Source: Lophium mytilinum (Eukaryota). From it: 64,000 bases of DNA. The notes beneath the pieces are model-generated. The model made no database searches, was not told the origin of the DNA, and saw only the letters and a list, made by a program, of their open reading frames with translations. The DNA is taken from contig MU004183.1 of the NCBI GenBank assembly GCA_010093605.1, positions 2,294,001-2,358,000 on the forward strand. Reading direction: 5' to 3'. The position numbers and the translations under genes were made by a program. Position 1 is the stretch's first letter; each line of letters starts with the position of its first letter. Positions 6,486 to 48,033 of the stretch are shown here, piece after piece.

Positions 6486-7675
6486 TCAGCGACTAGACGC
6501 GCCCGCCTCGACGACTTCCTCTCGGCCTGCAACATCTACATCCTCATACTCCCTCGCTTCTTCTCTACATGTTCCTAGCAGCGTTGTCAAGTGCCGCCGC
6601 ACTTCTGGATGAAAATTGCTCGCCGACGCCCCCTCTGCTAGCTCCAACGCCTCCTCCCCCTTCGACATCGCCTCGAACAAATCCGCCGACTCCTTGGCGC
6701 GTGTGTACCGCACGTATAGCGCATGTGCCAGCCGAGACAGGATATGCGGGAGAAACGAGCTGCCGTCGCCCCTGCCCGCCTGCTCCGCCTTCTGCAGCGT
6801 GATGACGGTCTCCTCGATATGCAGGAACTGCTCGTTCTGGTCGTAGAGGGCGCGCAGACAGCTCGCGAGGTTCAGCAGCCGGGTGGGCAGCCGAGCATCG
6901 CTGGCATCCGTCTTGTCGACGGCTTCCTTCGCAAACGAGACGGCTTGCTCGAGATGCTCCACCTCGCCCTCCTTCTCGTACATGGACAGGTACATGGTCG
7001 AGAGGTCGTTGTGCACGGTGGCGGCATTGCTGCCACTGGCTGCCAGCGAGTCCTTTGCTTTCCGGATCGCGGCCTCGATGTCTTCGGTGGCGCCGTCGGC
7101 TTCGTACCGCGTGCACAGCGCGTTCGCCTGGTTCATGAGGATGACGGCCTGCAGGCCCGACTCCTCGGTCAAGCTGCGCAGTGCCTCGCCGTAGACATTG
7201 ATTGCGTCGTCCAGGTCTTTGCGGTCGCCGAATCTCTCATACCGGAGCGTCAGGCGGCTGCCCTGCAGCGCATGCCACTGTGCCGCCCTCGAGTGCCCTG
7301 GTGGTTGCTGGAAGCTAGCGCGGGCCCCAGACACGCAAGCGTCTCTGCTGCGCGAGTTTGCGCGCTGCAGGTCGTCGTCATTCCCTGTTATTTCGTACTT
7401 TGAGAAGTATAGATCGGCTAGTCGGTCGAGGTGCACCGCCTGGAATGCCGGCTGGGTAGTTGTAGCCGTCCGGGACGCCTCGACGGTAGCTGCTTCGAGC
7501 TGCTGGATGGCAGCCTCAATCGTTTCTAACGTCTGCGGCGGCTCATCCTCAGAAATACCTGGAACCCGTGTTAAAGGCCTTCTCGAACGTCGTGGACAGT
7601 TGTGGAACGCTGCTGAAGATCTTTCTGGCACTTACGATCACCTGACGAGCCTGGACGAGGTGGCGACATCGACAT
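6486..7675 (-). CDS. TPR-repeat protein resembling the N-terminal part of fungal TPR-CHAT proteins, without a CHAT domain
   Basis: ATG at 7675, intron 7635-7559; repeated helices KYEITGNDDDLQRA, RYERFGDRKDLDDAI, RYEADGATEDIEAAI, MYEKEGEVEHLEQAV, RYTRAKESADLFEAM. Confidence 0.75.
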
Positions 7676-21126: not shown

Positions 21127-23088
21127 ATGGCTTCAATAATCTACCTATTCGTTGCGCTTTCTATTGTCTATGTCGTCTATAGACTACTTCAGGTCGGCAA
21201 GCGTGACCCCCGGATGCCCAAAGGTCCCCCTACGCTGCCGATTATAGGCAACTTTCATCAAATTCCGTCTACGGGGATGTATCGACAGTGCGTGGGCCTT
21301 TCGCCTTTTGAGGACATGCCAAATTGACGACACGTAGATTTCGAGAATGGGCCAAAGAATACGGTACAGTCTTCTCGCTCAAGTTCGGTCCTTCGAATAT
21401 TGTCGTGCTGTGCGACCGAGAAGCAATTCACGAGCTTCTCGACAAGAAGGGAAGCATCTACTCAGACAGGCCAAAGACGTATGTAGGCGATTTGTTGACA
21501 AGAGGGGATCATATTGCGATTTCTCAGGCGGACGGGTTGTGGAGAGAGAAGCGCAAAGTCATTGCACACAATTTCTCTCCAAAGATGCTTGACGAAAAGC
21601 ACTACAGGGTCCAGGAAGCCGAGTAAGTTACCTAGATTAGTCTAGTACGAATGCTCGGTTTGCATCTTAACAGGTCGCTAGAGGAATCGTCCTAATGAAT
21701 GACTTACTACGAGATCCTGATGGTTTCTTCAACCACATTCGCCGCTATACTGCTTCAGTTGCCGCGACGCTGGTGTTTGGCCAACGAGGCGCGACGTTCA
21801 AATCATTCTGGGCTCACGCAAGTTCACAAAATCTTTGCTGAGAACTAGCTGACCAGAAACTTAGGGTGTCTTCGACGTTATGGAAAGGGTAAGCCCAATC
21901 TATACACAAAACTAGCACCGCTAAACCGTGATATAGTGGACTGAAACTATGGAACCTGGCGCCACGCCTCCCGTTGATGAATTCACATTTCTTAAGTTTG
22001 TCCCAAAGCGATTTGCGCTTTGGAAGCGGCGTGCACTCAGAGCTGGAGACACCATGGACGCCGTCTGGACCAAGGCCAGACAGATTATCGACACTCGGAG
22101 AGAACAAGGCGAGAAGCGGGATTGTATCGCTGATCGTCTCATAGATGAGTACACCGAGAAAGGCTTTCCAATGTCTCAACATGCATTCAACAACCTGATT
22201 GGTGAACTGGTCGAAGGCGGAGCGGATACAACAGCTGCCCAGCTACTTACAATGGTCTTGGCTCTGGCAAAAAATCCGTGGGTCCAGAAGAAGGCGAGAG
22301 CTGAAATCGACCCTATCTGTGGCACTTCAAGATCTCCACGGTGGGGCGAAGACTTCCAGGAGCTGCCCTACATCAACGCAGTCATCAAAGAGGGCATGAG
22401 ATGGAGGCCAGTGTACGTGCTCGAACTCTTTCCAGTCGAATTCAACCATGCTAAATGATAGATAAAGGGCTGTGACAGCACTGCCGCACCGAGTCAGACA
22501 AGGTAAACATGCTCTGGGAGGCAGAACTGGTCGCAGACGAAGTTAACCATCTTGACCAGACGACTTTTACAAGGGAATGCTAATTCCCAAGGACACAACG
22601 ATTTTTATCCCCACCTGGGCGATTCATCACAATCCCGAGTTCTACGAAGACGACGAAGCGTTCAACCCAGACCGGTTCCTGGGCTACCCAAAACTAGCCA
22701 GCGAATACGCAGGCAGCGCGAACTGGAAAGGCCGAGATAGGTTCACCGCACCTCACGCTTAGGACTAACGCTAACTCATGTCAGCGACATACATCACTAC
22801 GGCTACGGAGCTGGTCGCAGAGTCTGTCCTGGAATGCATCTTGCCGAGCGCAACATGTGGCGCATCACTTCCAAGCTGCTTTGGGCGTTTGACATCTCCG
22901 AGCCGATTGATCCCGTCACCGGCAAGACTGTGACGTTGGATCCAGACGCTTACAATTCGGGCATTACTCAGGCCCCTTTGCCATTCAAAGTGCGGATAGT
23001 GCCACGCAGCAAGGAGCATGCCGCCGCTTTGCAGCAGGAACTGAAGTCGGCGTTGGACTTCTTGGCACCGTTTTCTTCGAAGGAGTGA
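21127..23088 (+). CDS. cytochrome P450 A, CYP619 (PatH/PatI)-like (multi-exon)
   Basis: TM anchor, PKGPPTLPIIGNFHQIP, MEPGATPPVD, I-helix EGGADTT, KEGMRWRP, FNPDRF, heme motif HYGYGAGRRVCPGMHLAERN. Confidence 0.92.
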
Positions 23089-37672: not shown

Positions 37673-39782
37673 ATGGCTCTCAAAAATGCGATGGCCAGTT
37701 TCCACCACACTATGGGCGAAACTCCCTGGGTTAAAGCTGGTTTGGTGGTTTTGGTGCTTTATAGCATCTACCGGATTCTTCAAATTGGTAAACGAGACAA
37801 GCGCATGCCTCCGGGGCCCCCAACAATCCCATTGCTTGGTAATCTCCATCAAATTCCTATCACAGGGTTGTATAAGAAGTATGCAGTACCATTCGTCAAG
37901 TGCGCAATGGTAGAGTAGCCGGCTAATTCATGGTAGGATGAGGGACTGGGGTGAGAAGTACGGGGGCATATACTCGCTGAAGTTCGCGTCTTCCAATGTC
38001 ATTGTCCTATACGACCGCAAGGCCATCCATGAGCTTGTTGACAAAAGGGGATTGCTCTACGCCGAACGACCACACAGTTATGTCACCAACTTGGTGACAC
38101 ATGGTGACAGTCTAATCTGGCAAGACCATCATGAGAAGCAGAAAGTAAAACGCAAGATTACTACACACAACTTCTCGGTTCGTTGGCGATTTCCAATGTT
38201 AGGAAGCGGGCTACCACTGACGTAAATGATCAGCCATTAATTCTTGATGAAAAGGTTGCGCCAGTGCAGGATGCCGAGTAAGCTGACTTTCTTCAGCCCT
38301 GAGTCTATGCTGTTGCGGCGGGTTTTGGTTATTTAACCCCCTTAGCTCGTCACCTGCTGACACTATTATTCGACAGAGTCACGGTTTTGCTGAACGACCT
38401 GCTGGAGAGACCACGAGATATCTACTACCACATGAGGCGATTGACTTCGTCTATCGCGACTATTCTTGTGTTTGGCCAACGCGCAACGACGTATGAGGAC
38501 TTCTGGGGTCACGTAGGCTCGCATCTTCCCCTGTGTGCCTATTAATATCTAACGGGAAATAGTGTGTGTACGACGCCTTGGACCGGGTACGTTAATGCGC
38601 TTGCCAACCTGAAAGCTGATGCTAACAAGGTCACTCGCTTAGTTTGGTGAAGCACTCGAGCCTGGTGCCAACCCACCAGTGGATGAGTTTCCTTTTTTGA
38701 AGTACATTCCCCTCTTTCTGGCACCGTGGAAAAGACGCGCCATCTATGCCGGAGATGTCATGAACAAAATCTGGGCTGAGGCGCGCAAGCGTGTTGATGA
38801 TCGACGGGCGCGGGGCGACATTCGTACCTCTCTTGGTTCGCTGGCTGACAAGCTTCTGGACGAGTATGCGGAGAAGGGAACGAACCTTGGAAAAGATGAG
38901 TTGGATCATTTCTTCGGATTGCTGGTTGAAGGCGGTGCCGAAACTACTTCCTCGACCATGCTGACGCTCGTGCTGTGTCTCGCCTTGAACCCTCGAGTCC
39001 AGATCAAAGCCAGGAAAGAGCTGGATGCTGTGTGCGGATCGGAACGGTAAGTGTCTGCCCGACGTCGAATTCGGCCGCAGAAGTCTTTTAACACGCTGTT
39101 AGAATGCCAGAGTGGTCTGACTTTGCTCGGCTCCCATACATCAACTCCATCATTAAGGAAGGCATGCGGTGGCGCCCAGCGTGAGTTTGACACAGCAGAG
39201 ACTGCTAATGAATGCTAAAGAGATGTAGCGTCCCTCTTGGCATCCCGCACCGCGTCGCTGCGGATGACTACTACGAGGGCATGTTGATCCCCAAGGACTC
39301 GACCATCTTCATGCCCACCTGGGCTCTTCAACACGCCGAGCATCTTGGCTACGACGAGCCGTATGCCTTCAAACCCGAGAGGTACGCAAAACACACGAAA
39401 CTGGCGAACGACTACGCGGGAGGCGCAGATTACAACAATCGAGATAAGTATTGACTGGCCTGGATACTCTGGACGTTTAGCTGACGGTTTCGCACATCAC
39501 TATGGATACGGAACTGGGCGCCGCATGTGTCCTGGGATCCACCTCGCGGAACGGACTCAATGGCGCATTGCAGCCAAGCTGCTGTGGGCATTCGAGATCC
39601 TTCCCGGAGTGGACAAGACGACTGGAAAACCGGTGAACTTGGACCCGAACGCGTACGTCGAAGGTCTTCTCCACGGGCCAGCGCCTTTCGAGGTCATATT
39701 CAAACCGCGGAGTCAGGCGCATGTAGACGTAATAACACGCGAGCTGGCCAGCGCCAGGAAGTTCCTCGAGCCATATGAGTAA
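37673..39782 (+). CDS. cytochrome P450 B, CYP619-like, paralogue of P450 A (multi-exon)
   Basis: PPGPPTIPLLGNLHQIP, LEPGANPPVDEF, EGGAETT, KEGMRWRP, FKPERY, HYGYGTGRRMCPGIHLAERT; shares intron positions with P450 A. Confidence 0.92.
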
Positions 39783-44794: not shown

Positions 44795-46967
44795 TCAGCG
44801 TACAGTGAAGTCGTCCAGCTCATCGGAAGTGTCTGAGAAATCATCGTCTGGGAAACGACAACATATCCCGCAGAAAATTGGGTTGGTGCTAGCAGTGATG
44901 GATACCACCAATGCGGACGCAGTTGGACGTGACTGCTGATCTACCGATAGCATTTGCTGGACCCACGCTATAGGCCGATTGTCGCATAGATCTGGCTTTT
45001 CTTCGAGCTCTGCAAGAAGTTCTTGCAAGGCAGTGGGGTTCGTGCGGACGAAATGTCCTTGAGATCCGTGCTCTTTCAAAAACTCGTACATATACTCGAC
45101 TTTTAGCCCTTTAAGAACCACAACCATCTCGAGGAAGACAACTCCAAGGCTCCAGATATCGGACGACGTGTTTCGAGGCTCGTGCAACATAACCTCCGGC
45201 GCGCAGTACTTCGGAGTCATCCCGTTCGCCATGCTAACCGTTGTGCTTCCATCAGCATCTGTGAAGTCCAACGAAAGCCCGAAATCGGTGAACAGGACTT
45301 TTCCCTGCTTCACCAGGATGTTTTGCGGTTTGATGTCCTTGTGGCGAATGTTTTGCGAATGCAGATACTCGAGTGCCGTGACTAGACAGCCAAGAAACGT
45401 GCGCAGGTCCGGAGTCTTGACTGCCTCGATCCGCGCAAGGTAGGTGGATAGGTCCATATCTGCCACGGGTGACATGATCAAGCCCATATATCGTGGATCA
45501 GTGTAGCTTCCAACAAAATCGACGATGTGGATGTGCTCCAAGCGTTTCAGGATTTGAATTTCAGCAATGAACTGGTTCATGGCTTCTGTTCTTCGCCCGC
45601 CAAACATAGCGGCCCGAGGCACTTGTTTCCTGGCGTACTCACGGAAGCTGATTGAGCTGAGAACCTTATCTACTTGGCCAAAACCACCGGAGCCTAGGGT
45701 CCCCTTGGTCTCAAAAGGCAAAGGCTCGCCGCGTCGGAAGTGGCAGTGTTGGCCCATTTGACCTTTCTCAAGATCTATGGACTTCGTCAGAACCAGATCC
45801 TGGGCATCCACGAACTTCGAGCGATAACTTGGACGGAGACAGTGTGGAAGACTTCTCTCGGTCACGGGAAACCAGTAATCGGAGAACCCAAGGTCAACGA
45901 AGCTATCAAGAATATCGAGGCAGTTGATAGTTCGGAGCACGATATACGTTCGCGGAATAGTGCTCCAGCGCGGATTCACCATCTTCAAAATCGATGAGAT
46001 CTCGTATATTTCTGAATCGGTGTATGGGGCTCGACGTCCGGTGCCCTGCTGAAACAATGCACCTAGGCGACCTTGAGCTACCTCCGTAGTGCTTTGTATG
46101 ATACTTAGCGGGAAAACGATATCTGGAATCGATGAGATCTCGTTGGCGTTTGAAGCGGTGTATGGGGCTCGAAATCCAGTGCCTTGCGGGGATAACGCGC
46201 TTAAGCGACCCTGAGCTATCTCTGCCGTTTCTACGAAGTCTGGCGAAGAATCGAAATCCATCAACTTCTGTAGCAGGATCTTGGAACGAACTGTATCCTT
46301 GTGTTCTTTCCCTAGGGTCTTCTCGCGTCCTTGTATTACCTGATGATATAGCTCTTCTGCCTCGNNNNNNNNNNNNNNNNNNNNNNNNNNNNNNNNNNNN
46401 NNNNNNNNNNNNNNNNNNNNNNNNNNNNNNNNNNNNNNNNNNNNNNNNNNNNNNNNNNNNNNNNNNNNNNNNNNNNNNNNNNNNNNNNNNNNNNNNNNNN
46501 NNNNNNNNNNNNNNNNNNNNNNNNNNNNNNNNNNNNNNNNNNNNNNNNNNNNNNNNNNNNNNNNNNNNNNNNNNNNNNNTCTTCTCGCGTCCTTGCATTG
46601 CCTGATAATATAGCTCCTGTGCCTCGACGTCCTTCTTTTGGTCATAGAGGCAGTGTGCTAGCCAGTGCTTACTACTAAAAGTGTCTCTATGCTCTTTCCC
46701 TAGAACCTTCTCGCGTCCTCGTTCTACCTGTTGACATAGCGCTTCTGCCTCAGGGTACTTCTGCTGCAAAGAGAGTGTCCTTGCTAACCAGTCCTTGCTT
46801 TCCAACGTGTCTACATGCCTTTCGCCCAGGGCCTGTTCGCGTTCTTCTACCGACCGTCGGAACAGCTCCTCCGCCTCGGGCAATCTCTGCCGGAAGTACC
46901 TTTTCTTTCCTAAATTATACTTCTTTGCTCCTGGTCTATTGTCCAGAAGTGCTACTAGGCGTTCCAT
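44795..46967 (-). CDS. N-terminal TPR (42-aa, kinesin-light-chain type) repeats fused to a Ser/Thr kinase; spans the assembly gap
   Basis: AEELFRRSVEEREQALGERHVDTL, AEALCQQVERGREKVLGKEHRDTF and AEELYHQVIQGREKTLGKEHKDTV repeats; kinase GSGGFGQV, YARK, HKDIKPQN, DFG, YCAPE, DIWSLG. Confidence 0.85.
46365..46580. other. assembly gap (216 N) inside the 126-nt TPR array
   Basis: Run of N flanked by near-identical repeat units. Confidence 1.
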
Positions 46968-48033
46968 AGCAGCTCTTCATAGAGTCAACCAAGTTGCATA
47001 GAATGATCGAAATGGTTGTGTAGGAGTTTCCAAACAAGCCCTCGAGTCCTCTCGGGCTGGAAGCCCGGCCCTTCAAGCTCGATCGGAAGAGAGGTTGTGG
47101 TCCGTATCGTCGCCTTCAATATAATCAGTCAGTGTTGGTCAAGAGTCGCGGATGAGGCTTAAACATGGGAGGTAACTTACAATGGAACGAGCCGAGCGGT
47201 AGCGTCTCAAACCGCAATAGCGTCGGGCAAGGTCTCGTTGCGTCTAGGCGTAAGATGATCTAAACGATGCAAAGTTCCGCAAACCGCACTTGAGATAGAT
47301 TTGCGGATCGCTGGTAGATGTCTCGAGGTTGTATTTTGTGGAGCCTTACGCTCTGACGGAACGGCCCAGGTTGTGATGTTCAGCTGAACGAGTGCACAGC
47401 CCCGCGCCTGCAGCCAGCAAAGCTTCCCCGCCTATCAAGCGATATCACACGTGATCTCTTCAACTGATTTCGTGGAGCATAGCGACCCCGCATGCTTTTG
47501 ACCGCAGAAGCGACTGCGCTATGTGCACTTCCTAATTAGATAACCACGTTGCAGAGGTCAAGAAAGGGTTGGAGAATAACGAGGAGTGATTTTAAATAAT
47601 GAAAGGGGACTATGCTCGGATTTCCGAATTGGGACTGGTAATTAGCCAAGACAGCAGAGTATAGAAAGAGACGCCGCATGGCTGTACGCGTACTGTATAT
47701 ACAAGCAACGACGTGCGTAGATCTCTCGATAGGGACGCGAAGAATGTGTGAAATAGAGAGGAAGAGAGGCGGGATGGGAATATCGTAGGTTATGTGAAGC
47801 TTCTCCTAGATGTTTAACGACGTTATGAAAAGCGAAGAGAAAAGAAGAAGTGGCAAGGACATATGGTAAATAAGTCGTAACGATTTTGTTACATATACCG
47901 ACGAAGCGGAGGTATCAATCTTACAAGTACAGGCATAACAGCGTAAGAAGCGTGGACCCGTCTCCAATCCCACCCACAGCAACCTAGAGTTTCAAGCGAA
48001 CTAGAATTGCAGCCTCCATCTCAAGCCCCCCTT

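Follow-up and report, generated by a model that had tools for sequence, protein, structure and literature searches.

U2-type AT-AC introns (type II) carry AT-AC ends on U2-type signals. In SCN4A/SCN5A and TAF2 these ends were conserved in orthologs and multiplied by gene-family expansion, according to the accessible text of PMC1557818. The same text counts 24 U2-type AT-AC introns among 608,562 U2 introns of five species, and describes a first-base G-to-A change (G1A) that was rescued, less efficiently, by a last-base G-to-C change. The U12 consensus has an ATATCC donor and a CCTTAAC branch site (PMC3033335, available part). AT-AC introns are described as rarer in fungi (available part of PMC7072748), and the accessible portion of PMC10639083 reports no convincing minor introns in Ascomycota. 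Nevertheless, AT-AC II introns have been proposed in xylanase genes of filamentous fungi (PMC1557818), and six RNA-seq-supported non-canonical introns with an ATANGT 5' border were described in Botrytis fabae, where the genes named in the text are those of CTP synthase and V-ATPase subunit E (available part of PMC10971195). In Ganoderma lingzhi there were 13 AT-AC introns, 0.014% of all introns, and the one in chr6g0094801 was missed by gene prediction and confirmed by Sanger sequencing (text passages of PMC11590231).

We analysed a window of 64 kb, meaning the whole stretch of Lophium mytilinum DNA, in which an AT-AC intron had been predicted in a cytochrome P450 gene (P450 B, Table 1). The 52-nt segment is very probably a genuine AT-AC intron of U2 type ('type II') that is spliced as a matter of routine and has been inherited at a fixed codon of an ascomycete P450 family. 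No paper on this P450 intron was found in the literature searched, most subscription papers being beyond reach. In the characterised relative atE four introns were mapped by cDNA and the last is at 1191-1243 of 1850 bases (available text of PMC5794859), which by our estimate is upstream of the AT-AC site.

P450 B and its competing splice models

The upstream frame of P450 B reads ..YNNRDKY and stops, and the heme-binding motif HYGYGTGRRMCPG is in another frame, just as the original prediction described. When the seven GT-AG introns and the AT-AC intron were removed, the gene encoded 544 aa with no internal stops and read R-D-H-Y-G-Y-G, so that the predicted restoration of the motif yielded an intact P450. 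The protein belongs to the cytochromes P450, with a PF00067 match, the PER arginine and the heme cysteine motif. The CYP619 label is a lead. Automatic names found among the homologs were 'patI' (P0065, P0079) and 'yanC' (P0084, P0101).

All three predicted elements, ATAAGT, GCTGAC and CAC, are present in the 52 nt. By inspection, without a weight matrix, ATAAGT differs from the GTAAGT of P450 B intron 6 at +1 only. GCTGAC ends 10 nt upstream of the intron 3' end. In all five AT-AC copies described below a CTRAC motif stands 10-17 nt before the 3' end, and in six of the seven GT-AG introns of P450 B the distance is 9-19 nt. The predicted spliced junction is AATCGAG joined to ATCACTAT. Because AT stands on either side, this joint (39443 to 39496) can slide by 2 bases, but the ends of the slid forms do not resemble splice sites. 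A loose AT-AC-like pattern had five start sites on both strands of the 64 kb, two of which are the same codon of P450 B and its paralog P450 A. The AT and AC termini were read identically in the public sequencing run X1, whose coverage of the segment is at 99%+ identity and free of differences, and therefore the A and the C are not evident assembly errors, although X1 may be the source sample and not independent.

Table 1. Features of P450 B and the introns compared at the same codon
Feature	Position	Strand	Remarks
P450 B gene, 9 exons, 544 aa	37673..39782	+	gene model; Pfam PF00067 match on P0009
P450 B GT-AG introns 1-4	37879-37936, 38178-38233, 38278-38376, 38513-38562	+	
P450 B GT-AG introns 5-7	38587-38642, 39047-39102, 39181-39228	+	
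False GT-AG intron (GTACGC...TAAG, 67 nt) of public model P0009	39382..39448	+	rejected; 39382-39443 is exon
AT-AC intron, 52 nt, phase 1, splits Asp codon of R-D-H (G/AT)	39444..39495	+	sequence, gene model, contig joints
5' splice site ATAAGT	39444..39449	+	U2-type GTAAGT with A at +1, not U12 ATATCC
In-frame TGA reached on retention of the AT-AC intron	39452..39454	+	452-aa product without heme cysteine
Branch-point motif GCTGAC	39480..39485	+	type as in the GT-AG introns of P450 B; branch A inferred at 39484
3' splice site CAC	39493..39495	+	first AC downstream of branch point
Heme-binding motif HYGYGTGRRMCPG	39498..39536	+	Cys codon 39528-39530
P450 A AT-AC intron, 56 nt, ATAGGT...GCTAAC...TAC	22737..22792	+	paralog; codon as in P450 B
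L084 AT-AC intron, 55 nt, ATAAGT..AAC	strand position 2284 on	-	
L090 AT-AC intron, 56 nt, ATACGT..TAC	L090:2283-2338	+	
L002 AT-AC intron, 51 nt, ATAAGT..AAC			metagenome
L082 GT-AG intron, 60 nt, identical site	strand position 2429 on	-	long tree branch; natural control

Splice routes were listed from all GT/GC donors from 39230 on and all AG acceptors from 39380 on. AGs near the site end at 39381, 39422, 39428, 39443, 39448 and 39480, so the earlier statement that 39480 is the only nearby AG was wrong. The best canonical in-frame route listed joins GT 39382 to AG 39448, which restores the frame. The public protein P0009, whose source label is Lophium mytilinum, equals this model letter for letter. 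Since such a route exists, the frame alone does not force the AT-AC intron; homology does. The word 'obligatory' in the original prediction is therefore not supported as an argument from frame; the canonical route exists on paper, and what excludes it is homology and RNA.

If the public model were correct, the canonical intron would be spliced and the 'AT-AC intron' would be mostly coding. This is very improbable, even though that intron is in frame, has canonical ends and matches a deposited protein. It changes PERY to PESI and deletes the PER arginine, which is present in all 96 homologs that are contiguous at the junction and which completes the E-R-R triad of P450s as its third residue. 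With the AT-AC intron removed, the PER arginine is 32 residues from the cysteine, as in 95 of the 96. Against a profile built from 95 of the 96 contiguous homologs (P0007 left out), the AT-AC model scored 815.9 bits, a GC-AG model 793.3, the public GT-AG model 752.0 (64 bits below AT-AC) and the retained form 649.0. Moreover, no CTRAC branch point was seen within the false intron, its joint was in none of four sequencing runs, and two contigs (X4 record 20 and X3 record 18) cross the region as exon. P0009 is thus a wrong model, and the expectation that gene predictors would mis-model the AT-AC intron was borne out.

Other arrangements were also rejected. The GC-AG model (39423-39480) keeps the frame, but its donor is GCGCAG, its Arg-Cys distance is 30 and not 32, and it scores 23 bits less. 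A nested, stwintron-like arrangement does not fit, as 52 nt is too short to hold two introns. By reasoning, A-to-I editing of position +1 cannot account for the paired C.

The junction in public sequencing runs

Contigs of four runs (X1-X4), none on record as RNA, were aligned to the window at likeness 85. The joint 39443 to 39496, the junction that had been predicted, was found with exactly 52 bases skipped in one contig each of X2 and X3 (two of the four runs, two studies). The short side of the joint was 20 letters in X2 and 59 in X3, with depths of 3.9 and 2.5. GT-AG introns of P450 B are missing from contigs of X2, X3 and X4 as well, four of the seven being seen as joints, and therefore these runs behave as spliced RNA, so that their RNA status is a guess from this behaviour. 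X4 record 20 is spliced at two upstream introns and then reads 39229-39443 as exon up to the end of the contig, while X3 record 18 is exon across 39282-39443. The spliced contigs come from close relatives, 89-96% identical to the window, and not from the Lophium mytilinum sample itself; removal of the AT-AC intron from transcripts was thus observed in close relatives' contigs only. X3 has two differing contigs over the junction exon and may therefore be a mixture of taxa.

The genomic intron ends of these relatives are unseen, and a relative without the intron might give the same joint. This is unlikely on sequence grounds, because the AT-AC footprint is found in every one of the six unspliced or genome-derived rows of the gene B clade (P0001-P0005, P0009).

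It is also highly improbable that P450 B is a pseudogene or that the AT and AC arose by damage to GT-AG ends or by sequencing error. X1 gave unspliced sequence only, but it was identical to the window and unspliced at every intron covered, the canonical ones included, and says nothing on expression. Both intron ends have changed jointly in five genomic copies, and the frame of P450 B is otherwise intact. The relatives' differences are mostly synonymous: among the 40 listed (33 more exist), 39 were coding, 32 synonymous and 35 at third positions. A coverage hole of X1 near 38460-38700 and the X4 share carried no weight in this assessment.

The same codon in paralogs and homologs

The genome search gave 94 matches, and the heme-motif region was read in the 30 loci returned. 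At the CGAG/ATCAC site, an AT-AC intron was found in P450 B, P450 A, L084 and L090 among these loci, and also in the metagenome gene L002. L082 has a GT-AG intron there, and L080 and L081 have no intron; six more distant paralogs also have none and read straight through as RDH/RDN. AT-AC, GT-AG and intronless states thus occur at one codon. The metagenome scan returned 77 loci, with the junction examined in L002 alone; the remainder were 29-42% matches without obvious introns and were taken as distant P450s.

The five AT-AC copies are 51-56 nt long, and their interiors are dissimilar by eye, with a CTRAC motif in each. Positions +3 to +6 vary as in U2 donors (ATAAGT, ATAGGT, ATACGT), and the 3' ends CAC, TAC and AAC mirror CAG, TAG and AAG; both ends change together. 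In P450 A (AG at 22783-22784) and L090 a CAG follows the branch point and precedes the AC end. Joining AT to the internal CAG would shift the frame, and therefore this CAG must be passed over. A 44-nt GT-AG model of P450 A (22741-22784) is in frame, but was rejected as the ortholog P0057 (1819-base contig, 94-99% identical to P450 A over single-exon matches) reads RDHYGYG.

Several other features of these loci were seen. On contig C13 some 8 kb separate L082 from L090, and the public protein P0061 is garbled at the L084 AT-AC site. The P450 A intron at 21820-21864, at the place of P450 B intron 4, seems by eye to begin with GCAAGT (GC-AG). P450 A and P450 B are in a gene cluster (21127-43856) that also contains a sugar/MFS transporter, two short-chain dehydrogenases, a glyoxalase/dioxygenase-fold protein, a SnoaL-like protein, an aldo-keto reductase and a fungal transcription factor. 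No PKS or NRPS frame was seen in the window's ORF list, and the cluster is perhaps one for aromatic-compound breakdown or tailoring. Elsewhere in the window, a repeat-rich frame on the minus strand (44798-46976) resembles TPR proteins and is broken by a 215-base N run at 46365-46579, and a 381-aa minus-strand frame (6489-7631) has helical repeats of a kind typical of TPR/CHAT-associated fungal proteins.

The protein set comprised 125 homologs from the matches listed (120 of 315 in the second search). At the junction site 96 were contiguous, including four rows with other substitutions that were missed by the pattern and counted by eye, and 29 were garbled exactly there. Nineteen of the garbled proteins continue from RD into K, N, E or D, which is what an intron starting with AT would give, and 22 resume as HHY, which is what an intron ending in C would give. 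At the protein level, the DNA being unseen, all 29 carry at least one AT or AC mark, and none (0/29) has marks of a misread GT-AG intron. Their source labels include Aspergillus, Penicillium, Exophiala, Glonium, Zopfia, Clonostachys, Coniochaeta, Fusarium and Lachnellula, genera that we take to span four classes.

A FastTree tree of 127 rows was built without the junction columns and without three proteins shorter than 250 aa. The AT-AC mark was clustered on this tree: it took 16 changes, whereas shuffling gave 27.2 on average and a count as low in 0 of 500 shuffles. It was nevertheless present on both sides of the midpoint. This pattern would fit an old origin followed by many losses, but the tree cannot date or prove such an origin, because genes without the intron, genes with GT-AG and correctly spliced genes all stand among the contiguous rows.

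Splicing of the intron and comparison with known AT-AC introns

Because the splice signals are U2-type, the major spliceosome is the likely machine for the AT-AC intron. From established splicing biochemistry, U1 and U6 would read ATAAGT like GTAAGT except at +1, and U2 would bind GCTGAC. The first and last intron bases would pair non-canonically, A with C instead of G with G. With each end dependent on the other, going back to GT-AG would take two changes via a poorly spliced intermediate. The end pair might thus be locked in, because two changes are required and splicing failure removes the heme cysteine; this is an argument by mutual dependence. The AT-AC form would leave the family chiefly by intron loss and rarely by a switch of both ends, which could go in either direction.

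Splicing by the minor (U12) spliceosome or with a variant U1 snRNA can be given hardly any credence. AT-AC ends are typical of minor introns (PMC7072748, available part), but the ATATCC donor and the CCTTAAC branch site are absent from all five AT-AC copies, in agreement with the original prediction of a U2-type intron lacking the U12 donor. Searches of the genome for U12 and U6atac gave 0 matches each; they were limited to part of the candidates (42/925 and 45/1743 scored), had no positive control genome and gave no signal with their controls, which leaves this alternative some room. The U1 search gave 16 matches, none of which has a 5' end altered to pair with A at +1, and nine have the standard CTTACC. 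These U1 snRNA-like copies (L113-L128) are dispersed, and the seven with degenerate 5' ends look like pseudogenes or variants.

A regulatory role of the intron is possible. Selection might maintain the AT and AC because they make splicing slow or tunable and so limit the active enzyme, which we consider doubtful. Retention removes the heme cysteine, the ends are widely conserved, and in yeast and human tests the splicing of rescued A...C introns was less efficient (cited in the accessible text of PMC1557818). However, family members manage without the intron (L080, L081) or with GT-AG (L082), no retained form was among the relatives' contigs, though contigs cannot measure retention, and the mutual dependence of the ends accounts for their conservation without regulation. 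A broader proposal is unlikely to a similar degree: an old AT-AC intron across several filamentous ascomycete classes would serve as a splicing gate, in which A at +1 would make the major spliceosome skip a well-placed CAG, as in P450 A and L090, in favour of AC, and slow or conditional splicing would set the amount of heme-binding enzyme in the clusters. If it were true, the natural AT-AC, GT-AG and intronless alleles would make the terminal-base pairing rule and its cost testable in vivo.

The AT-AC intron has consequences for annotation. Of the 125 listed database homologs, 29 are wrong at this site, some without the heme motif or the PER arginine. Genes synthesised from the garbled models would probably give a dead enzyme, and intact genes with the AT-AC intron could be filed as pseudogenes. 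The AT-AC, GT-AG and intronless states at one codon in one genome also form a natural series for studying end matching and the persistence of such introns.

Like the type II introns of SCN4A/SCN5A and TAF2, the P450 intron has AT-AC ends on U2-type signals, and the ends are conserved in orthologs and multiplied within a gene family (PMC1557818, accessible text). Unlike them, it is fungal, is 51-56 nt long and belongs to a lineage reported to be without minor introns; GT-AG and intronless states occur at its site in one genome, and its use of U2 is inferred from sequence. The proposed xylanase introns of filamentous fungi are of the same class and broad group, in another gene family (PMC1557818). 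The ATANGT introns of Botrytis fabae share the donor consensus (PMC10971195, available part). The Ganoderma lingzhi intron is likewise fungal and was likewise missed by gene prediction, but it is from a basidiomycete and another gene, and the text passages of PMC11590231 carry no family-wide conservation. U12-type AT-AC introns share with the P450 intron the terminal dinucleotides alone. The rarity claimed in the original prediction holds for the class, while the P450 intron is not a one-off. To the known but rare class of U2-type AT-AC introns, the P450 intron adds a member kept across a gene family.
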